A stretch of DNA of 64,000 nucleotides from Candidatus Dojkabacteria bacterium. Lineage in GTDB: Bacteria; Patescibacteriota; Dojkabacteria; SC72; JAHDCA01. Positions within the stretch are counted from its first letter, which is position 1. Every line of letters starts with the position of its first letter. Shown here one piece after another: positions 43,234-55,514 of this stretch. The notes under the pieces were generated by a model, which did not search any database, was not told the origin of the DNA, and saw only the letters and a program-made list of their open reading frames with translations. The translations under genes and the position numbers were made by a program. The stretch is taken from assembly GCA_030583845.1 (NCBI GenBank), contig CP129478.1:66655-130654 (forward strand), written 5' to 3'.

Positions 43234-43950
43234 TTAATGGAGCGTTTGAGTTCCTGCCATCCTGAAAGCTGACTCAAAGTGATCTCCAAATGGAAAAATC
43301 TTGACGCTGATTAGACCCATTCTCGACCTTGTCAGATCTTCAACTATTCCCTCTGGCTTTGAAAGGTTAGCCTTGGAGATAAAGTGTAGTGCCTGTTTGG
43401 TGTTAAACAGATGCATAAAGAGTCTGCGGGTCATAGCAATGTACAGCTCTTCTTCGGCCTCCTCTTCTTCTCCGATAAACTCCCATGCTATATTGTAACG
43501 AGAAAGTTTGACTGAGGCCGTCTTTAACAGTCGTCTCTGAGCCTCCTGCGCTGTCATACACTCACCTCGCGATTTCGCCTTATCTTTAGCATTAATGTAG
43601 CCATGAACAAGTGCTCCATCTACGAGTTCATAGCACTCCTCATAAAAGCAGCTCAGAGTAGCTCTAAACTGGTCAAATAGATCAAAAGGGGTACGTTCTT
43701 CAATACCTGTCTGACGCAAATTATCGTGATCAATAAAATCTCTAACAAACTTTGCCATACCAATTATACGATTAGATTCTCCTGCGTACTCCATACTTCC
43801 ATAGGATTCTTGGATAATAAGCCCCAACAGTCCCATCGATGCCGCGAGGCTCATTCCTGGCTTCTCTGTTTGCTCTTGTCTGTGTTCTAGCCAGCCCACT
43901 AGGGTGGGAGAGATTGTTTTTAGTTCAGGTTTCGTAAGCGTTTTATCCAT
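43234..43950 (-). CDS. hypothetical protein
   Basis: 238-aa soluble ORF at the left border of the R-M island with no motif recognised. Confidence 0.3.
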   Translation of the reverse strand: MDKTLTKPELKTISPTLVGWLEHRQEQTEKPGMSLAASMGLLGLIIQESYGSMEYAGESNRIIGMAKFVRDFIDHDNLRQTGIEERTPFDLFDQFRATLSCFYEECYELVDGALVHGYINAKDKAKSRGECMTAQEAQRRLLKTASVKLSRYNIAWEFIGEEEEAEEELYIAMTRRLFMHLFNTKQALHFISKANLSKPEGIVEDLTRSRMGLISVKIFPFGDHFESAFRMAGTQTLH

Positions 43951-44052
43951 GCGGGATTATACCGCTAGTAATAACATAACGCTATAGGGTTGCGACATAT
44001 TAAGAAGTAAATGAGGCAACGCTGATGTTTCCGTTTAACTGGCGTAGAAGGC

Positions 44053-44127
44053 TATACCCAGCTGGCCTCAGTCTCCAGAAAGATTATAGAGCAACTCAAG
44101 TTGAAAGATTTCACCGCTGGGTATAAT
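44053..44127 (+). promoter_or_regulatory. candidate autoregulatory operator and promoter of the HTH-methyltransferase
   Basis: 10-bp inverted repeat TATACCCAGC (44053-44062) / GCTGGGTATA (44116-44125). The downstream copy overlaps the GGGTATAAT -10 (44122-44127). A CCAGCTGG palindrome is also present at 44057-44064. Confidence 0.45.
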
Positions 44128-44149
44128 ATATCACTAAATTGAAACCGTT

Positions 44150-45364
44150 ATGTATTTATCACAGAAATTACAACAAGAGAGAGAATTTAAAGGTCTAACT
44201 CAAAGAGAGCTTGCCGACTTATCTGGGGTAAATTACTCAACAATTACCAAGCTTGAGAGCGGTGTGTATCAAAATCCTACTCTCGATACCATTATGAAAA
44301 TAAGTAGCGCCCTTGAGATAAAGATTGAAAGTCTCTTACAACCGCGGAAAGAATTTGGAATGCCTTCTAACACAATGATTGAATCCCACGCTGAAGTCAA
44401 AGGTGTAAAATTTACCTTTATTGACCTCTTCGCAGGTATTGGAGGAATTAGAATTGCCTTTGAGAGGCAAGGCGGGCGCTCTTTGTTTTCTTCTGAAATT
44501 GATAAGTATGCGGTTAAAACCTACCAAGCTAACTACGGTGAGACGCCTGCTGGCGATATTACCCAAATTGATGCCACAAATATACCTGATCACGATATTT
44601 TACTAGCAGGATTTCCATGCCAACCTTTTTCAATCGCTGGAGTTTCAAAAAGGCAGAGTTTGGGCAGGGGTCACGGTTTCTTTGATGAAACAAAGGGAAC
44701 ATTATTTTTCGACATCGCAAGAATTATTGAAGTGAAGAGGCCTAAAATCGTGTTTCTCGAAAATGTGAAGAACCTTATGTCACATGATAAAGGAAGGACT
44801 TTCGAAGTAATAATCAACACACTAAAAGAGCTTGATTACATACCATACTATAAAGTTAATGACGGACAGCATTTTGTCCCACAGCACAGGGAAAGAACAA
44901 TTATTGTAGCTTTTGATAATAAAGTATTTAAAGGCAAAGAGAATTTTGAATTTCCAGAGCTACCTAAAAAAGAAGTGAGGCTCTCAGATATTCTTGAAAA
45001 AGAGGTTGACCCTAAATATACACTTACTGATAAACTGTGGGAGTATCTTCAAAACTATGCGAAAAAACATAAAGAAAAGGGTAATGGATTTGGTTATGGG
45101 CTTGCTGATTTTAATGGAATCACTAGAACCTTAAGTGCTAGGTATTACAAAGATGGATCAGAGATTCTTATCCCTCAGGAAGGTAAAAACCCAAGAAGGC
45201 TTACCCCAAGAGAATGTGCAAGACTTCAAGGTTTCCCTGAGGATTTCATAATTCCTGTTTCCGATACACAAGCATATAAGCAGTTCGGAAATGCTGTAGT
45301 TGTTCCTTTAATGGAGTACTTAGCTAATTCAGTTGTTAAATCATTAGGATATGTTAGAAAATAA
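44150..45364 (+). CDS. DNA (cytosine-5)-methyltransferase with an N-terminal XRE-type HTH regulatory domain (M.EcoRII/M.SsoII-like)
   Basis: N-terminal HTH ([23 protein letters not shown]). C5-MTase motifs [50 protein letters not shown] and [10 protein letters not shown]. Confidence 0.9.
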
Positions 45365-46529
45365 TTTTGCAGGTCAGGCAATTGAGGCTGTTAAAAGAGG
45401 TTCTGTAGCTTTCTCGAAATTTATAACTTCAAACGATGCTGGAGTAACTGGAGGTCATCAAAGTGGATTCCATCTACATAAGAACTCATACCCTCTTTTT
45501 TTTGAGACTCAAGGAGTCAAAGGTGAAAATAGTGAAAAATTTGCAAAGATAAAATGGCAGGGAGATTTTGAAACAGACAGCAGGTTTATCTACTATGGGG
45601 TCGGTACAAGAGATGAATACAGACTTACAAGGTTCGGCAAAGGATTTCCGTTTTTAACAGAGGAAAGCGTTGGAAACCTTCTTATTCTTACTAAACAGAC
45701 AGATGAGTACTACGAGGCGTTTGTACTTTCAAGTGATGATGAGATAGAAACCTTCTTCAGTGCATTCGGCATAAGTCCACAGGAAACAAATAAAATCATT
45801 CCTAAAACAAATACTGTAAGTGTTGAAGATCAGCTTATGAAGATGTTTGAGGCTTACATAGGTACTATCAGCGTTGATTTCCCTCTTACAACCGAGATTG
45901 CAGATAATGCTAGGAAAATAATTATGCAGGTTTCTGGAATATCTACAATTGATGTCAAATCTAATCCAGATAAGGAGCTTTTGAGATGGCTTGATACAGA
46001 GTATAAGTTATTTAAAACTATTGAGAATAATAGATATTCAAACATCATAGGGCAACCTTTTAAGGATGTAGATTCTTTCATACAAACAGCGAACAGCATT
46101 TTAAATAGAAGAAAAAGTAGAGCTGGAAAGTCACTTGAGCATCACCTTTCAAATATGTTTACAACTTTTGATTTGAAATTCAGTGAGCAGACTGTAACAG
46201 AAGAGCACAAAAAGCCTGATTTCATCTTCCCAAGCCCGGAAGCATATCACAATTTTTTATTTGATCAGAATAAGCTTGTTTTTCTTGCAGCGAAAACAAC
46301 ATGCAAAGACAGATGGAGACAGATCTTGAATGAAGCTGACAGAATCAAAGTAAAACATTTATTTACATTACAGCAGGGAATATCTTCCAATCAGATGAAA
46401 GAAATGACGCGCTACAATGTTAAACTTGTTGTTCCAAAAGAATATATAAACACTTATCCTAAGGAGTACAGAGAAGGAATTTATTCGCTTGGTCAGTTTG
46501 TAAGATACGTCGATGCAACTCAAAAATAG
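45351..46529 (+). CDS. EcoRII-family type IIE restriction endonuclease (likely CCWGG-type specificity)
   Basis: Overlaps the MTase end by 14 nt. The N-terminal effector domain ([18 protein letters not shown]) resembles the EcoRII-N B3-like domain. C-terminal catalytic-domain signatures [42 protein letters not shown] and HLFTLQQG match my recollection of EcoRII; this comparison is from memory and was not aligned. Confidence 0.7.
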
Positions 46530-46558
46530 TGACAGACAACTAACAAAGAGCCTAGAAT

Positions 46559-46645
46559 ATGTCTAGAGACACCTCGGTAAGACAGATTCTTGAAAATAAA
46601 GAATGGAAAGTGATCTATATATGGGAATGTAAAATGAGAACCGGA
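46559..46645 (+). pseudogene. vsr: remnant of very-short-patch repair endonuclease gene vsr (C-terminal about 27 codons only)
   Basis: Translation RDTSVRQILENKEWKVIYIWECKMRTG matches the Vsr C-terminus (...RDRRVNEALEAQGWRVLIVWECALRG). In-frame stops lie immediately upstream. Only 29 nt separate the REase stop from this fragment, so about 120 N-terminal codons are missing. Confidence 0.6.
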
Positions 46646-46693
46646 CATAATATTTTCAAAATTTTACGAATACAAGATCTTGCTGATAGCAAG

Positions 46694-47914
46694 CTAATCA
46701 GGTGGCTCTTGGATATGTGCTTGAAAATAGATTATCTCGTTGACCAAGTTTTTCTGCGTATACTTCATTTCTTGGTATTTGTAGTAATCATTGAAGTACC
46801 CACTTAGGCTTGCGAGTTGCCTGCTGAATCTTCCAAGAAATGCTGTTACGCCTTCTAAAGTGAAATCAACAGAGTCAATGCCATCACCTAGGTCATCTAA
46901 CATCTTTCTGCAAACAAAGTATCGACCAAAATCCGTACTATTACCACGCAGCTTCGGTTTTGTTATTAAAAGTGGTTCATAGATGGGCTTGTAGATGTCG
47001 AGTTCCATTTCTTCGCTCATGTTCTGCGTAGCTTGGTGCAACCTTATTGCCCTTGTAATCGTATCATTTGATCTTGGCTCCAATACTAAAAGCTGGCTAT
47101 AGGCATATTTTATTACTGAAGAGACGACGGTCCCACTATACTTCTTCAAAGGCATATCTTTATCTTTTTTCCAATCTAGAAGTGTTGATAACACTACGCC
47201 CCAAAATATATAACGACCATATTCACACTGTAGGCAACTGTTGGGTGTTTCTGATAAAACTTCTTTCGAGATTACAAAGAGATAGAAAGAAACAACTTCA
47301 GACATGAGTGCTCCTTGTGAGATATCATGCAGTAACTCTCTATCACATTCTGCTACATTCCTTATACAGTTCGTTGCAATGCTTTGTGCGATACTCTTGC
47401 TGTTGTCTTCAAGTTTTCGTGGTCTTTCATAATCATTAACCCAAGTAAGATCGAGCCACTTTGATAAACAGATAAAACCGTTAAGAAGATGATTTATACC
47501 TTTAGTATTACCATGTACAACCACCTCATATAAAGACTCCGTGATTTTATCCATTCTACCTCGCCTAGAGTTAATCCAAATTTCCAACGGGGACAATCTG
47601 ACGCCAAACGGCACTAAGGCATTATACACAAGCAAGTTAGTTGCGATATCAAAGGTGTATGGGCCACCTGCATTAATTTCGTGAGAACGTATTTCACATA
47701 GGTAGCTATGAGGCATCCTTTTCAATACTCTACCAATAACAGAGACATACAATGAAAAATCTTTGAGGGTTAATAGTTGCGGCGTGTCAGCATTACCAAA
47801 AAAGCTATCTATTAATCGATTCGCCAGAAAATAATCCCCTTCCAACTCAGTTTCGCCCACAAGTGCAAGGGTAATTATTCGCCAATTCTCACATTCAGCG
47901 TCTAAAACTGCCAA
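46694..47914 (-). CDS. hypothetical 406-aa protein adjacent to the R-M module (possible defence-associated, HEPN/Abi-like?)
   Basis: AT-rich like the R-M genes. Soluble protein with a single Rx4H match (RAIRLH). No confident family assignment. Confidence 0.4.
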   Translation of the reverse strand: MAVLDAECENWRIITLALVGETELEGDYFLANRLIDSFFGNADTPQLLTLKDFSLYVSVIGRVLKRMPHSYLCEIRSHEINAGGPYTFDIATNLLVYNALVPFGVRLSPLEIWINSRRGRMDKITESLYEVVVHGNTKGINHLLNGFICLSKWLDLTWVNDYERPRKLEDNSKSIAQSIATNCIRNVAECDRELLHDISQGALMSEVVSFYLFVISKEVLSETPNSCLQCEYGRYIFWGVVLSTLLDWKKDKDMPLKKYSGTVVSSVIKYAYSQLLVLEPRSNDTITRAIRLHQATQNMSEEMELDIYKPIYEPLLITKPKLRGNSTDFGRYFVCRKMLDDLGDGIDSVDFTLEGVTAFLGRFSRQLASLSGYFNDYYKYQEMKYTQKNLVNEIIYFQAHIQEPPD

Positions 47915-48057
47915 GGATACTTCTTAGCCATCAATATTCTTAAAAACCTTCTAGGATTTAACAATTTCCTTCTTGTTTGCGGATACAACAAAAAACCCTC
48001 AATGTATGAACTGTGCATACTTGTAAATCTGCAAAGTTAAATCAGTACATTACATCA

Positions 48058-49290
48058 TTAAGCCAAGTGCTCGTCAACCCTCCCCCTCCTAAATCTCCTA
48101 CCAATCCACCCAAACCACCCCCTACGCACCATCAAGAACACACTAAACACCAATCCCACCGCACTCAGCCCCAAGAGTACAGTCCATAGCCTTACATTTA
48201 CCTCGCTACCATTCACCACCTTCAAGTCATCAGTCTCTAGCCCCTTATTCGTTACCTCATCCTCATCTACCTCATCACCCTCATCAGTTATCACTCCACC
48301 CAAGTCTGCAGGGTCTATCCCTTCAGGGATCTCTTCCTCTTCGACAGTAGGCTCATCCCGGGTCGCAGCTGGAGCGGCAGGAGTATCAGCCTGACCAAGC
48401 ATGGCAGCTGTTACAGCGACAGAGGCGTCACCTGTGCTTTTCACCTCGGCATGGCCGAAAGCATCTTCTGTGACTACCATCAGGGCATATGTGCCAACGG
48501 TAAGGCTGGCATCACTTACGTCGAGCGTCTTGCTACATGTACCGCTGCGGGTTGCATCTGCTGTCCCTGCACTAATCCACTGGTTGTTGGCGAAATATCT
48601 AAATGAGCAAACCCGGTCTTCCAGATAGTTGGCATTGCTCGGCTCAGTTACTGTACCTGTCATCTGGATCTTCCAATCGGGGTTGTCGGCACCGTTGGCA
48701 TTGGTGATCTGGGCGGTCAGAGTGCTGCGGGGTGCCTCACCATCTACGGTGATTGTGTTGAGTGTCTGGCCATTGATGAGCGGGGAGCTTGTTGGGTCAT
48801 ATACCCAGAACCTGACACTGTATGTAGCAACAGGGTCGAGTAGTGTGCGGTTAATATTGTTGGTACAGGAGTAGCTCAGCATGGTTGGGTCATCTTCATC
48901 TGGGACACCCGCGGAAAGTGTGCCGTTGTACTGTCCTGTCTCACCGCTTCCCCAGTTAAATGACACCTTGCATGTGGCAATGGTTGCATCACTCTCAAAT
49001 GTGATAACCGAGGTGAAGACATCGTTTACATACATTGTGGAGCCGTCAACCTTGTTTGGCGTGTATGCAGAGGTCTTAACTGTCGTGGCGGCATATGCGG
49101 GGCTGCTGGAGACGAAAGAGAGTATGGCTACGATAACTATGGCGAGGAAGGGGATGAGTAGGTGTCTTTTGCGTCCGACCACTTGTCGGCGATACGGTAG
49201 AAGGAAAGGCTTTTGCTTTGAGCCAACTGGTCGGACTGGATTCTCAATGTCTCGACGTTGTGGCTCTTTATCTGTATGAGTTGTTTTCAT
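48058..49290 (-). CDS. cell-surface protein with N-terminal signal anchor, beta-rich Ig-like region, acidic linker and C-terminal TM anchor
   Basis: N-terminal TM (LIPFLAIVIVAILSFVSS). C-terminal acidic stretch (EEEEIPEGIDPADLGG...DEVDEDE) followed by a TM helix and an RRGRVDEHLA basic tail. Confidence 0.45.
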   Translation of the reverse strand: MKTTHTDKEPQRRDIENPVRPVGSKQKPFLLPYRRQVVGRKRHLLIPFLAIVIVAILSFVSSSPAYAATTVKTSAYTPNKVDGSTMYVNDVFTSVITFESDATIATCKVSFNWGSGETGQYNGTLSAGVPDEDDPTMLSYSCTNNINRTLLDPVATYSVRFWVYDPTSSPLINGQTLNTITVDGEAPRSTLTAQITNANGADNPDWKIQMTGTVTEPSNANYLEDRVCSFRYFANNQWISAGTADATRSGTCSKTLDVSDASLTVGTYALMVVTEDAFGHAEVKSTGDASVAVTAAMLGQADTPAAPAATRDEPTVEEEEIPEGIDPADLGGVITDEGDEVDEDEVTNKGLETDDLKVVNGSEVNVRLWTVLLGLSAVGLVFSVFLMVRRGWFGWIGRRFRRGRVDEHLA

Positions 49291-49333
49291 TGCAGATATA
49301 ATATAGCAGAGGCGGGGTGGGTTGTGAAATGGG

Positions 49334-49756
49334 CTATCTTGATCCTCTTTGGTTTTGTATATGCTCGAGAAGCATCTCGTTCATTATTGTTTGAATCTGG
49401 AAAGGCGTGAGGTCGATCATTTGAGGATTGCACAGTACACGCTCGACTTTGCTTCCCATCGCGTAAATGATCACATACAACTCATCCTGTTGTGCGTTCA
49501 GTACTCTATATAGCCTTACAGCAGATAGAGAAGAGTCGTTCTCGTACTGTGGCATCATTTCGGCATTGTCTGGCCTAAGCGTATATCTTGTCCATCCAAA
49601 TGTGTCTGGTCCAATAGCAAACCCACCCCAGCTATCTGGCCTTTCTGTTTTTAGTATTGTATGTATGCCTTCGTACTGAGCTTCTCTATCACGGAAATGC
49701 TCGTCAACGTGTCCGTAAAGTTCTTCAGTACTCATCTGGCCATAACTATTTATCAT
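49334..49756 (-). CDS. hypothetical small acidic protein, possible paralogue family member A
   Basis: 140 aa. Shares E-x-L-x-x-x-YG...F N-terminal and hydrophobic YVIIY core patterns with the ORFs at 49789 and 52267. Confidence 0.35.
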   Translation of the reverse strand: MINSYGQMSTEELYGHVDEHFRDREAQYEGIHTILKTERPDSWGGFAIGPDTFGWTRYTLRPDNAEMMPQYENDSSLSAVRLYRVLNAQQDELYVIIYAMGSKVERVLCNPQMIDLTPFQIQTIMNEMLLEHIQNQRGSR

Positions 49757-49788
49757 GGCTTGATTTATACTATAAGTCTATTGCAGAT

Positions 49789-50256
49789 TCAACCACGTAC
49801 ACCTCGCCATCTCGGATCATCACCGTTTCGTCGCATACCCTGTGCATACTCAAACATTAGCCTGTGGCACACTCGAACAACCGTTTGATTAGCGAGATAG
49901 TGAGAAGAGAAGCTCAAGATTACTTCCCACCTACGATCCAACGCGCCAGCAGTTACGTACGCCAGCTCTTTGCCCACTTCTTGATACAGCAAGAAATAGC
50001 CCATGCTTTCGCGTCGATCAAACTCCCTGAGAACCTCCGGTACCTCCCAAGTGAGACCCATGTTATCGGGCTCAATCTCTTCACAATAATATATGCGGTA
50101 TCGCTCTGTCCGACCGCCCAGTTCCAAGTCTTTGTATGATAGCTGATATATCTCGGTTGAGGCATAATTCCAAGGCAGCTCGCGCTCTCCCACTCTGAGT
50201 GGAAATTGCATTTCCGATCTATCACCGTAGTAGCGATGGCTCCCGTTTTCGCCCAT
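49789..50256 (-). CDS. hypothetical small protein, paralogue family member B
   Basis: 155 aa. Shares SEMQFPL...PW and MGYFLLYQ segments with the ORF at 52267 (SERFPL...PW; QGYFLLYR). Confidence 0.4.
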   Translation of the reverse strand: MGENGSHRYYGDRSEMQFPLRVGERELPWNYASTEIYQLSYKDLELGGRTERYRIYYCEEIEPDNMGLTWEVPEVLREFDRRESMGYFLLYQEVGKELAYVTAGALDRRWEVILSFSSHYLANQTVVRVCHRLMFEYAQGMRRNGDDPRWRGVRG

Positions 50257-50302
50257 GCTTATATTGTATGTAGTGAAGGATTATGGTTGAGTAAAGTGAA
50301 AT

Positions 50303-50680
50303 CTAGAACTGTATCTCATCAAAACTTAGATACTGGATAGCTTCATGATGCTTGAGAGCTGATGCATATGCATATTGGGAACGTTGTCTGAATTCATCAG
50401 ACAGGGGGGCCGTTATACTATGCCCATCAAGTCCACAGCCGGACAAGTTCGGGACAAATATGTCGAGTAATCTAACCTTACCGTTATCAAGTAGAAGATG
50501 CACATATACCTTATTACAACCTTCGTACAGATATGGCGATAACTCATCTATCCCAACCGTATCGCCATTGAGCGACGTATAACAAGCGAGAACACACCCT
50601 TCGCCTTCATGTACAATCTCGGTTTCACATCCATCTCTTTCTAGCCCTTTAGTTGTATCGCCACCAAACTCCGACATCAT
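50303..50680 (-). CDS. hypothetical small Cys-containing protein, possible paralogue family member C
   Basis: 125 aa with a KVYVHLLLDNGK hydrophobic core segment. Confidence 0.3.
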   Translation of the reverse strand: MMSEFGGDTTKGLERDGCETEIVHEGEGCVLACYTSLNGDTVGIDELSPYLYEGCNKVYVHLLLDNGKVRLLDIFVPNLSGCGLDGHSITAPLSDEFRQRSQYAYASALKHHEAIQYLSFDEIQF

Positions 50681-50808
50681 TTGTCACTAGGAATAATTTA
50701 ACTATTTGCATACCCCATAGTCTCTATCTGTAAATAATCGGAGATGTTCCATCTCCATTACATACCCATTACACGCTCAAAATATCAATCCTGTATAATT
50801 TACCGAGT

Positions 50809-51504
50809 ATGAAACTAAACTACACCCTCAAACGAGAAAAACGCCGCTCCCTTACTATCCGCATCACCGAAAACGCCGACGTCATTGTCAAAGCACCTCA
50901 CCGCCTCCCACAGCAGCAGATCGACCAATTCCTAGAGGAGAAATCCGGCTGGATAAGCAAGAAGCTTGCTCTACAGCAGCGCCGCAGCGGAGAACGCCCT
51001 GCGCACAGATTTAATGAGGGTGAAAAATTCGAGTATCTCGGCGAGACTTACAGCCTGCAAATAATCCCTCCAAGCGCAGTCACCAAATATGGGCTCACAC
51101 TAAGAGAGCCGCTAGACCTGCACCAAGACTTCATCCTCCATGCCGAGAAGCAGCCGAAAGCGCGCGAGGCATTCACAAAATGGTACAAGAGTGAAGCACG
51201 TACAATTCTGGCCGATAGAGTAGGGCATTTCTGCGACCTAGCCGGGCTTAGGCACCAATCGATCAAGCTCTCAAATGCCAAGACTCGCTGGGGCTCATGC
51301 AGCAGCAAGGGCAATCTAAACTTCAACTGGCGTATCATAATGGCTCCGATGGAGGTAGTAGACTATCTGGTCGCCCACGAGGTAGCGCATCTAAGGCATC
51401 AGAATCATTCGAAGAGCTTCTGGAATTTGGTGGGGGAGATCTATCCGGATTATAAGCAGCATCGGAGGTGGCTGAAGGAGAATGGGCATAGGCTGGAGAT
51501 CTAA
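50809..51504 (+). CDS. YgjP/DUF45-family (WLM/M48-like) zinc metallopeptidase
   Basis: C-terminal WGSCSSKGNLNFNWRIIMAPMEVVDYLVAHEVAHLRHQNHSKSFW, the HExxH signature of the family. Confidence 0.75.
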   Translation: MKLNYTLKREKRRSLTIRITENADVIVKAPHRLPQQQIDQFLEEKSGWISKKLALQQRRSGERPAHRFNEGEKFEYLGETYSLQIIPPSAVTKYGLTLREPLDLHQDFILHAEKQPKAREAFTKWYKSEARTILADRVGHFCDLAGLRHQSIKLSNAKTRWGSCSSKGNLNFNWRIIMAPMEVVDYLVAHEVAHLRHQNHSKSFWNLVGEIYPDYKQHRRWLKENGHRLEI

Positions 51505-51508
51505 TCGC

Positions 51509-52108
51509 CTAACAGTAGCCCTTAATGGCTGGGTGAAGAATACTATACCAATTGGTTTCTCCAGTTCCCCTCTGTTTTGAGCTTCCACGAGGTACTCTCC
51601 CTCTAAAGTTCAAACCCTGAATAGGGTGCCCCACAGGAGTAACTGCAGCTGTGCTCAAAGTTCCATGTCCGTAGTTCATGCCACTGACCAGCTCTTCTAG
51701 CGTAGCGACAGCATCTACTACATCAGGATTAAAGTATCTTATGCCAGGCATACCCTTACACGCATATACATAGGCCCGCTTCTGGCCTTTGGATCTAGGT
51801 AATTCAACCACATGAAATGCCTCGGCAGAACAAAGACCAAAGGCATTTGGGGCTATAAAATAGATGCACTCTCGGTAATCAATCTCGGTATAGAGTACCG
51901 GTGGAATTGTATACCTATCATTATGATAAAAGTCCCACTCAATTTCATATGCATTTCGCTGTGTCAACAATGCTAATAGAGTGGTAGATTCATCCATCCC
52001 TTTTTGGAATAGTGGTAGGGACTTCTCGATTACCCCCTTATACTCATAACTGATTACAGTTCGTATATTCGGCTTTGGATTGTGTGTGTGTTCCAGGTCG
52101 GTGCTCAT
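51509..52108 (-). CDS. hypothetical protein, possible paralogue family member D
   Basis: 199 aa with the aromatic-rich pattern (WDFYHNDRYTIPPVLYTEIDYRECIYFIAPNAFG). Confidence 0.3.
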   Translation of the reverse strand: MSTDLEHTHNPKPNIRTVISYEYKGVIEKSLPLFQKGMDESTTLLALLTQRNAYEIEWDFYHNDRYTIPPVLYTEIDYRECIYFIAPNAFGLCSAEAFHVVELPRSKGQKRAYVYACKGMPGIRYFNPDVVDAVATLEELVSGMNYGHGTLSTAAVTPVGHPIQGLNFRGRVPRGSSKQRGTGETNWYSILHPAIKGYC

Positions 52109-52266: not shown

Positions 52267-52887
52267 TTACTCCGCTTCAACAGGCCAGTTCAATTTCATA
52301 AACCAGCTATTAAATATCTCTTTCGAGACAATTAGCCTACTGTTGTACTCCCCGAAGTCGAAGATCCTGCCAGTAAACCGACTTGGCTTGAGGTTCCCAG
52401 CGAGTATTTCTATACCCTCGTCACTTGCGACGCTTTCATACAATTTACCGAAGCTAGCCACAGGATCTACATCGATAGATGACAGTAACACTGGTGCTCT
52501 GAATTCATAATTCCGATACAGCAGGAAGTAGCCTTGATCAGTAACAACCAGCATCGCCATATTCCTATTTGTGTCCATTACTCCGTAGCATGCATTCTGA
52601 GCTGTACCGAACTTCCCATCCTGTTCAAGCCCTGTAAACCCAGTAAAGATTATAACCCTTGATTTTTCAATCATCTCAAGAGATTCATTTCCATTTTCAT
52701 ACTCCATAATCATCTCCTCCATCAAGGGAACAACTGCCGAGTAGTATGCTGTTTCTCCATCATTATGCTTGACCCATGGTGCACGATTGAATTCTTCCAT
52801 GTACAGCTCGAGGGGAAATCGCTCACTCTTCTCTCCGTACTCAACTGCCAGGTTTTCTAATCTCTCACTACTTGGTCCACCCATCAC
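52267..52887 (-). CDS. hypothetical protein translationally coupled to mutS, paralogue family member E
   Basis: 206 aa. Its start overlaps the mutS stop (ATGA). Segments SERFPLELY...APW and DQGYFLLYRNYEF are shared with the ORF at 49789. Confidence 0.4.
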   Translation of the reverse strand: MMGGPSSERLENLAVEYGEKSERFPLELYMEEFNRAPWVKHNDGETAYYSAVVPLMEEMIMEYENGNESLEMIEKSRVIIFTGFTGLEQDGKFGTAQNACYGVMDTNRNMAMLVVTDQGYFLLYRNYEFRAPVLLSSIDVDPVASFGKLYESVASDEGIEILAGNLKPSRFTGRIFDFGEYNSRLIVSKEIFNSWFMKLNWPVEAE

Positions 52888-55514
52888 TCAAACCTCCTCT
52901 TCAACTCCACCAGCTTATTCAGCGCCTCCACCGGCGTCATCCCATCTAGATCCAGCCCTTTCAACTCATTAATAAGCTCCGACTCCTGCGCAGAGAAGAA
53001 TGATAATTGATCAATGCTAGCTGCTTTGCTCGATTTCCCCTTAGTCGCTGCTGCTATCTGCTCATCATCAGACTCGCCCTTGCCATTTGATAGAGTAGAG
53101 AGGATCTCATTCGCTCGCGTTACCACCTCCTCAGGCAATCCAGCCAGCTGCGCTACATAGATGCCGTAGCTCCGATCAGTACCACCCTCGACGATCTTCC
53201 GCATGAAAGTTACTTCGCCTTTCTCCTCATCCTCGCTCACCATCACATTGTAGTTGCGGACAAATTCAGGGTGCTCGGCTGCCAGCTTCAGCAGCTCGTG
53301 ATAATGGGTAGCAAACAGTGTGCGAGCCTTGACTCGACTCACAAGATACTCGGAGAGAGCCCATGCAATGCTTACACCATCGTAGGTGCTTGTACCTCGA
53401 CCCACCTCATCCAGTATCACCAGGCTGTTTTCGGTCGCATTATTCAATATATTTGCCGCTTCCTCCATCTCCACCATAAATGTGCTCCGTCCCTGGCTCA
53501 GATTGTCTGAAGCACCTACTCGTGAGAACACACGATCGACCAGCGAGATCTCAGCATCATTTGCTGGCACGAATGAGCCGATCTGCGCCATCAAGACGAT
53601 AAGTGCGATCTGACGGATATAGGTTGATTTACCCGACATATTGGGGCCGGTGATGATGGCCATGCGATTGCCCATGATTGTCACATCGACATCGTTTGAT
53701 ACAAACTCATCATCTGAGATCTTCTCGACTACAGGGTGGCGGCCACCTGCTATCTTTAAAACTCCGTCGCGCACACCAAAATCATGCATGATAGGCTTGA
53801 TGTAAAGATTTGACCGCGCAATATTTGCAAACCCGGCCAGGACATCAAGCTTGCCAGTCTCATGAGATAGCTGCTTGATCGCTGTGAGGTAGGGGAGCAG
53901 CTCTTCCCGCAGCTCTTGGAAGATATTGTACTCGAGCTTGAAAAGCCTCTCCTCAGCGCCAAGGATCACCTCTTCTTTCTTCTTCAGCTCATCGGTAATG
54001 AAGCGCTCGCAATTTACCAAAGTCTGCTTGCGGATATAGTAGCCGGGGACTTTATCAATATGCGCATTAGTGACTTCTATGTAGTAGCCAAAAACCTTGT
54101 TGAATCCGATCTTGAGCGATGGGATGCCGGTCTTCGCTTTCTCGACCTCAACCATCTCTTGGACCCACTCGTTTTTCTGGCCTGAGTTGCTGCTGCCAGC
54201 CAGTGATCTTAATTCATCTACCTCTGGGCTGTAACCGGCTTTGACAATTCCACCCTCACTTATCGTAGTAGGTGGTGAATCCGAGATTGTAGAGTCAAGG
54301 CGGGTGATCAGGCTATTTATTGGGAGTTTTTCGTCGGAGAAGAGCTGGGCGAATTTAAATTTCTCAAGCAGCTCGCTATGCTCTGCTAATCTATCAGATA
54401 TTTGCAGCATATTTTGCAATGAAAGCTGCAACCCTTTCAAGTCGCGCGCTGAGGCTCTGTTTAGACCGACTTTGCCGACAATTCGCTCTGTGTCGCTTAC
54501 TTCAGATAGAAGCTTGCGGATTTCATTAAGTAGCTCAAAGTCATTGTGAAAATACTCGACAACTTCATGCCTTTCATTAATTTCATGAAGATTAAGCAGC
54601 GGATTAATTACCCAAGAGTAGAGCATACGCCTGCCCATGACAGTACGAGTGTCATCGAGCACCTCAAGCAGTGTGTCGTGAGATTGCCCAGTGTAGGAGT
54701 TCTGCACCAGGTCGAGGTTGCGGATTGTCGCTCGATCAAGAACCATCGTGCCCTGAGTCGAGAAGTATTGCGGTCTGCTGATATGCTCTGGGTTCATTTT
54801 CTGCGTATCCAAGATATAGCTGATAAGCATGGAAGCAGCTCTGGCCGCTAACTTATAGTCCGCTATAAAAAGCGAATCCAAGCTTTTCGCTTTATAGAAT
54901 TCTTTGAGCGTCTTCTCAGCGGCGGCTGGCTTGCTCTCTGCAGCGCTGATAAGCTGCACAGGGATTTCATTAAATTTTAATGAAGTCTCGGAGTCCGGAA
55001 GCAAAATCTCTACAGGGTCGTGCGCCGCAATTAATGAATTTAATGAATCCCGACTCAGCGGAATCTCAGTAATCTTAAATTCACCAGTTGAGAGATCTGC
55101 AAATGCAACGCCGATCTTTTCCTTATCCTGCACGACAGCCATCACATATGGATTTTTGCGCGAATCGGCCAGATCGCCATCAAGCGTACCTGGCGTGACT
55201 ACTCGAGTGACACCTCTTTTAACTACTCCCTTGGCCAGCTTAGGATCCTCAAGCTGATCAACAACAACAGCGCTGTGGCCTGATTTGATGATCTTGGGCA
55301 GATATTGATCAAGCGCATGGTGTGGGAAACCGGCAAGTGGGGTAGGGTCGGTAGCTTTGTCGCGGGTAGTTAATGTGATATTTAATACTTTAGAGGCCAG
55401 CTTGGCATCATCGCCAAATGTCTCATAGAAATCACCCATCCGAAACAGCACAATCTTGTCAGGATATTGCCTCTTGACGCCTAAATATTGTTCCATCATG
55501 GGGGTCTTTTTCAT
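52884..55514 (-). CDS. mutS: DNA mismatch repair protein MutS
   Basis: N-terminal mismatch-binding domain (MEQYLGVKRQYPDKIVLFRMGDFYETFGDDA). Walker A GPNMSGKST and an ABC signature. Length 876 aa. Confidence 0.9.
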   Translation of the reverse strand: MKKTPMMEQYLGVKRQYPDKIVLFRMGDFYETFGDDAKLASKVLNITLTTRDKATDPTPLAGFPHHALDQYLPKIIKSGHSAVVVDQLEDPKLAKGVVKRGVTRVVTPGTLDGDLADSRKNPYVMAVVQDKEKIGVAFADLSTGEFKITEIPLSRDSLNSLIAAHDPVEILLPDSETSLKFNEIPVQLISAAESKPAAAEKTLKEFYKAKSLDSLFIADYKLAARAASMLISYILDTQKMNPEHISRPQYFSTQGTMVLDRATIRNLDLVQNSYTGQSHDTLLEVLDDTRTVMGRRMLYSWVINPLLNLHEINERHEVVEYFHNDFELLNEIRKLLSEVSDTERIVGKVGLNRASARDLKGLQLSLQNMLQISDRLAEHSELLEKFKFAQLFSDEKLPINSLITRLDSTISDSPPTTISEGGIVKAGYSPEVDELRSLAGSSNSGQKNEWVQEMVEVEKAKTGIPSLKIGFNKVFGYYIEVTNAHIDKVPGYYIRKQTLVNCERFITDELKKKEEVILGAEERLFKLEYNIFQELREELLPYLTAIKQLSHETGKLDVLAGFANIARSNLYIKPIMHDFGVRDGVLKIAGGRHPVVEKISDDEFVSNDVDVTIMGNRMAIITGPNMSGKSTYIRQIALIVLMAQIGSFVPANDAEISLVDRVFSRVGASDNLSQGRSTFMVEMEEAANILNNATENSLVILDEVGRGTSTYDGVSIAWALSEYLVSRVKARTLFATHYHELLKLAAEHPEFVRNYNVMVSEDEEKGEVTFMRKIVEGGTDRSYGIYVAQLAGLPEEVVTRANEILSTLSNGKGESDDEQIAAATKGKSSKAASIDQLSFFSAQESELINELKGLDLDGMTPVEALNKLVELKRRFE
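54845..54861. repeat. solo copy of the 17-mer CCGCTAACTTATAGTCC inside the mutS coding sequence
   Basis: Identical to the left arm at 29092-29108. On the minus strand it encodes DYKLAA within MutS. No inverted partner is found nearby. Confidence 0.6.

Follow-up and report, generated by a model that had tools for sequence, protein, structure and literature searches.

An EcoRII-type restriction–modification operon in a variable slot of a Dojkabacteria genome, with an orphan 406-aa protein family at the slot's edge

EcoRII, which recognizes CCWGG, combines an EcoRII-N effector domain with an EcoRII-C catalytic domain (PDB 1NA6, 3HQF and 3HQG). C5-cytosine methyltransferases (MTases) of the M.SsoII, M.Ecl18kI and M.EcoRII class consist of an N-terminal helix-turn-helix (HTH) region of about 55–70 amino acids (aa), a linker and a complete MTase. 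In M.SsoII, residues 1–55 are regulatory and residues 72–379 form the MTase, and the protein binds a quasi-palindromic site in its own promoter (PMC3978073); M.EcoRII has also been reported to repress its own gene (PMC3978073; PMC2760811). Here we analyse 64,000 nucleotides (nt) of contig CP129478.1 (the window) from the 1.04-Mb metagenome-assembled genome (MAG) of Candidatus Dojkabacteria bacterium, a member of the Candidate Phyla Radiation (CPR). A low-GC segment at 44053–47914 encodes an HTH-fused MTase, a restriction endonuclease (REase), the remnant of a vsr gene and, convergent to these, a 406-aa protein (Table 1). Our interpretation, which we consider probable yet well short of certain, is that an EcoRII-type restriction–modification (R–M) operon occupies a variable slot led by the 406-aa product, a prenyl-synthase-like accessory defence protein.

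The restriction–modification operon and its decayed vsr

The REase carries both domains of EcoRII. The effector domain PF09217 spans residues 17–143 (E = 2.6e-19; 3HQF, E = 8e-8) and the PD-(D/E)XK catalytic domain PF09019 spans residues 221–384 (E = 2.2e-64), covering positions 1–165 of the 165 in the profile. The alignment to EcoRII covers the whole protein (1NA6, E = 1.5e-60); identity is 37.6% overall, higher in the C domain (49.5%) and lower in the N domain (27%). When residues from the EcoRII-C/DNA structure (PMC2770665) were mapped onto the REase, the catalytic set E271/D299/K324/E337 was found as E263/D290/K315/E328, the CC:GG recognition triad K328-D329-R330 as K319-D320-R321, and N260 as N252. 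The segment TTCKDRW, to which the triad belongs, is identical across all seven relatives described below. Five of the six EcoRII residues that form the pocket for the flipped base are kept (E225, Y226, F229, R265 and A266). Mapped in this way, the catalytic, recognition and pocket residues predict CCWGG specificity and a Type IIE two-site mechanism: the REase would stay auto-inhibited as long as its N-terminal effector domain has no second CCWGG bound, and once it has, the C-terminal dimer would flip the central W pair and cut.

The MTase likewise follows the M.SsoII plan, with HTH_3 at residues 7–60 and a complete DNA_methylase domain (PF00145) at residues 88–396. It matches TIGR00675 dcm in NCBIfam (E = 3e-99) and MTase_II in PADLOC (E = 3e-145); with the Dcm subfamily model of NCBIfam it reaches 393 bits, under the cutoff of 710. 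All six C5-MTase motifs that were checked are present (I, IV (PCQ), VI (ENV), VIII, IX and X), and GNAV is among the motifs found. Judged by its cognate REase, the MTase would place C5-methyl-cytosine at the inner C of CCWGG, the Dcm/M.EcoRII specificity. From sequence, then, the R–M pair is an intact and ordinary member of the EcoRII family, with every catalytic and CC:GG-recognition residue kept.

Upstream of the MTase gene, the right arm of a perfect 10-nt inverted repeat (TATACCCAGC and GCTGGGTATA) overlaps the −10 box TATAAT (44122–44127) of a sigma-70-like promoter. By our own estimate about 0.03 such perfect repeats would be expected by chance in 261 nt, and the closest relative, L006, has the same −10 context, CTGGGTATAATATATCA, ahead of its own MTase gene. 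An inverted repeat within the MTase's own promoter is also a feature of the M.SsoII class (PMC3978073; PMC2760811). The repeat is a plausible operator, through which the XRE-type HTH may repress the MTase's own promoter. Unlike the M.SsoII class, in which the two genes are divergent or separate units, the window genes form an operon in the order MTase–REase with an overlap of exactly 14 nt; co-directional and overlapping genes, together with the CPR host, also distinguish this system from EcoRII.

Between the REase gene and the 406-aa gene lies what is left of vsr. In a DNA alignment with L006 the junction of REase stop and vsr start is retained (TAGTGACAGACAA versus TAATGACAGACAA), followed by in-frame TAA and TAG codons, an internal deletion of ~300 nt and a C-terminal segment reading 'RD..ILE..W.V.YIWEC'. 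The start context and ~27–45 C-terminal codons are thus present, compared with ~140–156 aa for an intact open reading frame (ORF). Residues 92–118 of the intact L006 Vsr match window positions 46556–46636 (48% identity, E = 4e-6 against the window). The remnant reaches ~46690 and abuts the stop codon and a terminator-like hairpin of the 406-aa gene. An 82-aa ORF across this boundary was rejected as a gene, being a chimera in which the vsr remnant reads through into the antisense of the 406-aa gene. Its first 24 residues match the end of TIGR00632 vsr (positions 95–118, E = 0.033), and the PDB matches of its peptide are solely Vsr endonucleases. With its stop codons and deletion the window vsr is a pseudogene, so the T:G repair partner has been lost; in contrast to cassettes with a working Vsr, it lies dead beside an intact MTase and REase. 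The alignment supports decay from an intact form like that of L006.

Scanning genomes with the REase identified seven relatives. The closest, L006, comes from the Dojkabacteria MAG Zod_Metabat.1309 (JAFGFJ010000006.1) and is 71% identical in its HTH-MTase and 66% in its REase. Its cassette is of the Dcm–Vsr type: the REase gene runs at its end into the gene for an intact Vsr of 141 aa (Pfam E = 5e-27), which a gene for a 515-aa large serine recombinase overlaps in turn. All of these genes have a GC content of 0.33–0.36 and lie next to a host gene of 0.45. The other relatives, from Mariniphaga, Alistipes, Lachnospiraceae, Nitrospirae and Ignavibacteria, show 42–59% identity; vsr is adjacent in most of them, beside the MTase gene. 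Among the relatives fetched, the HTH fusion is clearly common only to the window MTase and L006. Neither a 406-family gene nor the gene that we call the anchor (see below) lies near any of the seven cassettes (0/7), which argues that the MTase–REase–Vsr block is a mobile cassette with a history of its own. We propose that it was drawn from a low-GC mobile gene pool and that vsr would have decayed later, by internal deletion and stop codons. Positions 1–8126 of L006 are of low GC (0.33–0.36), and there unannotated genes of 243, 206, 95 (weakly SpoVG-like) and 381 aa precede those for HTH-MTase, REase, Vsr and recombinase; this is probably an integrative element that moves the R–M cassette in CPR bacteria. 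In the window we found no trace of the L006 serine recombinase or of the genes next to it.

Composition sets the segment apart. Its GC content is 0.374, compared with 0.456 elsewhere in the window, and it is the global minimum among windows of the same size (mean 0.451, sd 0.020; about −4 SD). The three lowest values of GC at third codon positions (GC3) among 54 genes belong to the MTase (0.304), the REase (0.304) and the 406-aa gene (0.369); the remaining 51 have a mean of 0.49 (sd 0.05, minimum 0.376). A preliminary description of this DNA had read the segment as AT-richer than its flanks and horizontally acquired, with an MTase fused to an XRE-type HTH as in M.EcoRII and M.SsoII, an EcoRII-family Type IIE endonuclease overlapping it by 14 nt, and a decayed vsr. 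The GC windows and GC3 ranking bear out the first point and support horizontal acquisition, the domain matches confirm both enzymes and the overlap, and vsr is more complete than had been described, running from start context to C-terminal segment. That description had also called an R–M island in a minimal genome notable, which overstates the case: CPR genomes are reported to have a high density of defence systems, with thousands of MTases and REases (PMC12259885; bioRxiv 10.64898/2026.07.13.738296), and an R–M system in one of them is therefore not surprising. As one more EcoRII-type system in a phylum rich in R–M, the cassette adds little; it is of some modest use as a clear case in nature of decay in an MTase–REase–Vsr unit, with vsr lost and both enzymes intact.

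A variable slot that opens at the anchor gene

The 406-aa protein was described as belonging to no recognisable family and as AT-rich in composition, and this holds. It has no match in Pfam, NCBIfam, PADLOC or PHROGs, and neither it nor its homologues match any Pfam family even at E ≤ 10. A word-indexed search of 5.8e9 protein clusters returned only the protein itself. When 1.84e9 representatives were scanned exhaustively with HMMER, two homologues emerged, P0002 (405 aa; 28% identity; E = 3.5e-40) and, at 27% identity, P0003 (E = 5e-28), which makes three members in all among some 15 billion proteins. Profile searches of 5.8e9 clusters and of metagenome and viral contigs yielded no further members, and scans of genomes, metagenomes and viral contigs no further members or anchor-gene loci.

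The three proteins share 60 invariant positions, and the N-terminal ~170 aa of the 406-aa protein carries invariant motifs of its own (E-I-x-x-G-P-Y and T-N-L-x-x-Y-N). The window gene starts behind a block, AAGA(G/A)(G/A)TATCC, that recurs at ~1380–1401 of L001 and ~1385–1406 of L002 (contig SRR28525167_4624), two of three independent Logan assemblies (L001, L002 and L003) compared here, in loci that are otherwise unalignable. The start codons are TTG, GTG and TTG, and all three genes encode MA(V/T). Homology over the full length, the invariant positions and the conserved start block together indicate that the 406-aa gene is real, and the conserved non-ATG starts hint at translation that is deliberately low or regulated. 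The family is soluble (maximum 19-residue hydropathy 1.3–1.6); two members are acidic, with net charges of −9 and −12, and the third is near neutral (+1).

All three family genes directly follow, in the same direction, a homologue of one gene, which we call the anchor. The anchor protein of the window is 53% identical to the versions in L001–L003, which are 96–97% identical to one another. It has an N-terminal transmembrane (TM) segment or signal, an extracellular region with conserved Cys-containing sequence, a linker that is acidic and of low complexity and, at the C terminus, a TM segment followed by an Arg-rich tail (RRGWFG...RRxRV). Neither this protein nor its homologues match a Pfam family; it looks like a surface protein with a sorting signal, specific to the clade.

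What lies beyond the anchor differs from locus to locus. The DNA of L001, L002 and L003 is 93–94% identical until the anchor stop codon, after which no nucleotide similarity is detectable, and at all loci GC falls from ~0.50 in the anchor to 0.33–0.39 in the slot. We typed the cargo using Pfam and PADLOC. Beyond its 406-family gene, L001 carries a Type IV Mrr gene (mREase_IV, E = 4e-29) and a Type IIG/ISP-like gene (E = 7e-236), and L002 carries DUF2779, IetS and IetA (E = 1.5e-41 and 1.7e-87) and Type III Res and Mod (E = 6e-76 and 9e-167). In L003 the gene immediately after the anchor encodes a multi-TM histidine kinase and the next one a response regulator; both the 406 family and defence genes are absent. 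From the response-regulator gene onwards L002 and L003 match again, so that ~11.3 kb of 406-family gene and defence cargo stands in place of a 1.3-kb kinase gene. The 406-family proteins of L001 and L002 are only 31% identical, compared with 97% for the adjacent anchor proteins (the alleles overall share 27–31%), and this contrast points to allelic replacement and not to divergence in situ. In the four allelic states compared, three of which carry the family, the 406-aa gene is the constant first gene of a lineage-specific variable or defence slot, and not a partner of the EcoRII cassette.

The slot resembles known defence islands and hotspots in that identity is lost sharply at fixed flanking genes, the cargo is of low GC and close relatives hold differing systems (R–M Types II, IIG, III and IV; IetAS). 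It differs from them in lying in a CPR genome of ~1 Mb, in its constant, hyper-divergent orphan leader and in the lack of a detectable integrase or repeats. We propose that the cassette of the window occupies this slot, which starts at the anchor stop codon; in each sampled version with restriction cargo the first gene belongs to the 406 family. The interest of the locus lies here: ~1-Mb episymbiont genomes with almost no recognisable mobile machinery swap whole defence cassettes between near-identical strains at one fixed position, and each restriction-bearing version opens with a member of a three-member orphan family, which may have an enzyme fold not known to be linked to defence.

Two side observations concern the Logan loci. 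At 1267–3253 of L003 the low-GC (0.37) kinase gene is convergent with the response-regulator gene, with an overlap of 41 nt; the regulator is conserved in L002 and orphaned there, 11 kb of defence genes having replaced the kinase. A relationship between this kinase and the 406 family was rejected (hhalign probability 0.1%). All three assemblies break at the same point, ~20–110 nt upstream of the anchor gene, a hint that a repeat or another variable region lies there.

Table 1. Features in and around the segment, in coordinates of the window (L001 and L002 are Logan assemblies).
Feature	Position	Strand	Basis or remark
238-aa gene, conserved left flank outside the island	43234–43950	−	GC 0.439, GC3 0.416
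Perfect 10-nt inverted repeat, TATACCCAGC / GCTGGGTATA	44053–44062 / 44116–44125	.	candidate operator for the MTase HTH
Sigma-70-like promoter of the MTase–REase operon, TTGAAA ... TATAAT/TAATAT	44101–44129	+	consensus scan only
HTH-fused C5-cytosine MTase, 404 aa	44150–45364	+	Pfam, NCBIfam, PADLOC, motifs
HTH_3 of the MTase	44168–44329	+	Pfam, E = 2e-13
DNA_methylase PF00145 of the MTase	44411–45337	+	Pfam, E = 3e-95
EcoRII-family Type IIE REase, 392 aa	45351–46529	+	Pfam, alignment to 1NA6
EcoRII-N PF09217 of the REase	45399–45779	+	Pfam
EcoRII-C PF09019 of the REase	46011–46502	+	Pfam
vsr pseudogene	46530–46690	+	start context, stops, deletion, C-terminal segment
82-aa ORF	46559–46807	+	not a gene
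Terminator-like hairpin just after the stop of the 406-aa gene	46679–46693	−	pattern match only
406-aa orphan-family protein	46694–47914	−	TTG start, convergent to the cassette
Better-modelled part of the 406-aa protein, aa ~190–400	46715–47347	−	
DDxxD, aa 340–344	46883–46897	−	invariant
DWxxDKD, aa 247–253	47156–47176	−	invariant
Shine–Dalgarno and non-ATG start block, GCTAAGAAGTATCC+TTG+GCA, 20 nt	47909–47928	−	kept in L001 and L002
Anchor gene, 410-aa membrane-anchored surface-type protein	48058–49290	−	GC 0.52; right slot boundary at its stop

Fold and possible role of the 406-aa family

AlphaFold2 (AF2) models predict that the 406 family is all-alpha. Helices 231–250 and 320–345, with three others between them, each have an invariant Asp-rich motif at the C-terminal end: D247-W-x-x-D251-K-D253 on the former and D340-D341-x-x-D344 on the latter. 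In prenyl synthases, the first and second Asp-rich motifs (FARM and SARM) lie on helices D and H, and in the model the 406-aa motifs resemble this relationship. Two Asp-rich motifs on helices four apart are thus a likeness to the trans-prenyltransferases (farnesyl diphosphate synthase (FPPS), GGPPS, long-chain polyprenyl-diphosphate synthases; MoeN5). There are also differences: the first motif, DWxxDKD, is non-canonical where those enzymes have DDxx(xx)D; the spacing between motifs is ~93 aa, compared with ~125–140 aa; and the family has an extra N-terminal region of ~170 aa and lies in a defence island.

On the strength of these models we lean slightly towards an isoprenoid-synthase-like fold. 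A role related to defence is more tentative and in our estimate falls a little short of an even chance; that rating reflects the association with restriction genes in three of three cases, the absence from the non-defence allele and the conserved weak starts. The 406-aa protein would be a soluble enzyme that depends on Mg2+ and is built as an isoprenoid-synthase-like alpha-bundle, in which two facing Asp-rich motifs may bind a diphosphate-bearing substrate, and it would serve as an accessory component of the defence island, independent of any particular restriction system. The fuller proposal, that the family is a CPR defence-island enzyme of terpenoid- or prenyl-synthase fold that acts on a diphosphate substrate (a prenyl donor or perhaps a nucleotide) and either confers phage resistance of its own or primes or supports the adjacent restriction system, is speculative and on the unlikely side. 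Proteins of prenyl-synthase fold are not known from current defence catalogues: PADLOC gives no match, and a full-text literature search on terpene synthases in anti-phage defence found nothing relevant. If the protein does act in defence or island maintenance, it would represent a new biochemical class in immunity and a handle on how CPR bacteria shuffle 'pan-immune' genes; if it has no such role, it is a lineage-specific hypervariable gene and no more.

Several observations count against this overall interpretation. In the REase the sixth pocket residue, R222 of EcoRII, is Leu214, and the EcoRII-C/DNA structure paper left the structural basis of W discrimination unresolved (PMC2770665); the CCWGG specificity is a prediction from sequence. 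The window contains 69 CCWGG sites against ~93 expected (observed/expected (O/E) 0.74), CCTGG falling within the lowest 1% of pentamers and CCAGG within the lowest 8%, so the depletion that the preliminary description suggested looking for exists in mild form. It is not specific, however, since the control word GGWCC is lower still (O/E 0.60), and the deamination products CTWGG/CCWAG are not enriched (O/E 1.08, compared with 1.19 for an outer-C control); the 64 kb thus show neither specific avoidance of CCWGG nor a deamination footprint of Vsr loss. The candidate operator, a sequence pattern, has 10-nt arms 53 nt apart and differs in this from the compact 15-bp quasi-palindrome of SsoII. The island of the window contains no recognisable integrase and, with no flanking repeats either, the mode of acquisition can only be proposed. 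The association with defence consists of three cases in one narrow clade and is guilt by association, and PADLOC-DB v2 defence models match none of the three family members. As to the fold, AF2 on the three-sequence alignment reached a predicted local distance difference test score (pLDDT) of 56 and a predicted template modelling score (pTM) of 0.50; residues ~190–400 score 65–85 and the N-terminal half lies below 50. Foldseek with the better model found no significant match in PDB and BFVD, the Pfam polyprenyl_synt model (PF00348) matched none of the three members at E ≤ 10, and hhalign of the family with a validated FPPS alignment gave a probability of 0.2%.

The rival that survives best, and that we regard as a serious possibility, follows from these last results: the resemblance to prenyl synthases would be an artefact of a weak AF2 model, and the family would have a different or novel alpha-helical fold. 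Four of the five models score at or below 41 and the single-sequence model, with a pLDDT of 40, is unusable, which is compatible with such an artefact alongside the pLDDT of 56, the Foldseek result and the hhalign probability. Set against it are the two invariant Asp-rich motifs, which lie where the fold expects them. Two leads on the fold were dropped: the best local alignment to FPPS (GGPY/GGKR) falls short of significance and does not agree with where the Asp motifs lie, and a PDB profile search gave one weak match, the 'fusion protein' 9w4d (E = 0.03).

A second alternative, which we consider rather unlikely, keeps the fold and drops defence. The family would be a hypervariable accessory enzyme, such as a ComQ-like prenyltransferase, that shares a recombination hotspot with the restriction genes; its substrate would be a peptide or the adjacent surface protein, and diversifying selection would favour the swapping of its alleles. 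ComQ, an enzyme of the polyprenyl-synthase family, is likewise hyperpolymorphic between close strains (PMC4008528). The 406-family gene always directly follows the surface-protein gene in the same direction, and where the family is missing the slot contains a multi-TM histidine kinase gene beside that of a conserved response regulator. A ComQXPA locus as such, in which comQ precedes the comX pre-peptide gene, the comP kinase gene and comA on one strand, was rejected: PF00348 is not matched, there is neither room for nor conservation of a comX-like small ORF downstream (only 36 nt in L001), comX and comP neighbours are missing, and the kinase, confined to L003, never occurs in one locus with a 406-family gene. 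The anchor protein is intact and 96–97% identical in L003 despite the absence of the family there, and restriction genes flank three of three members.

It appears improbable to us that the R–M system itself is a relic in decay like its vsr, either inactive or with the MTase alone still functioning. Besides the vsr pseudogene, the pocket substitution and the many CCWGG sites that remain in the genome speak for it. Both ORFs are of full length, though, and every catalytic and recognition residue is intact; the Leu substitution is shared with the REase of L006, the sequence is identical across samples, and retained CCWGG sites are expected where a cognate MTase protects them.

The preliminary description had supposed that the 406-aa gene arrived with the island, and that its product might be a further defence or abortive-infection (Abi) component. 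As a functional partner the gene would form a three-component system with the EcoRII cassette, or a linked Abi module; it does adjoin the cassette convergently, it too has low GC, and the gene and cassette form a block that is identical in all sampled strains. We find this reading largely refuted, and very doubtful in what remains of it. Seven related cassettes, that of the Dojkabacteria L006 included, lack a 406-family gene nearby; the other two family members accompany Mrr/Type IIG and IetAS/Type III/DUF2779; GC3 is 0.369 in the 406-aa gene, compared with 0.304 in the R–M pair; and the vsr remnant between the 406-aa gene and the REase gene marks the cassette's own end. The gene thus probably did not arrive with the cassette, and no Abi, HEPN or other defence profile matches its product, for which the resemblance to a prenyl-synthase fold is the sole structural lead. 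Syntenic relatives without this R–M system do carry a 406-family gene, as would be expected of a conserved housekeeping gene, but the gene is not housekeeping: it is hypervariable, absent from one relative and otherwise always beside other restriction genes.

It is more improbable still that the family provides the mobility or targeting factor (a recombinase or integration-host factor of a novel kind) for islands inserting behind the anchor gene, given that no recombinase, transposase or nuclease motif or fold match and no flanking direct repeats or att-like sequences were found, and that homologous recombination through conserved flanks explains without a dedicated enzyme both the constant position and orientation at the island edge and the break exactly at the anchor stop, in a window island without a recognisable integrase.

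Genomic setting and neighbouring genes

Genes around the segment include those for HisRS, M16 peptidases, PBP1, MutS and PPDK, which are housekeeping proteins, mixed with unannotated CPR proteins. On the left, the 238-aa protein matches no family, and the arrangement of its gene is unchanged in every strain sampled. Contigs of four further samples contain the island with identical sequence, and the arrangement is therefore fixed within the species; samples that contain the organism include SRR24881069 and DRR779146. All contigs with the flank or the REase gene show this same arrangement, so there is no strain-level empty site, and neither direct repeats nor att sites could be convincingly recognised in the flanks of the island.

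To the right, three small unannotated genes (49334–50680) separate the anchor gene from a gene for a YgjP-like (DUF45/WLM) metallopeptidase (50809–51504, + strand, E = 2.7e-63), 1.5 kb past the anchor. Genes of the YgjP type often accompany type I R–M loci; no hsd genes lie beside this one. Within the window, which averages one CCWGG site per ~930 bp, the 7.9 kb from 43857 to 51743 (the island and ~4 kb beyond) contain none at all, for which a rough estimate before correction for multiple testing gives P ~1e-3.

A second strain, L004, overlaps the window by 17.7 kb. All 42 nt differences between the two, which cause 5 aa changes, fall within 53508–54186, inside mutS (52884–55514, − strand), and outside this 680-nt tract the overlap contains no difference. 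The tract looks like a short patch of recombination or gene conversion in a mismatch-repair gene.

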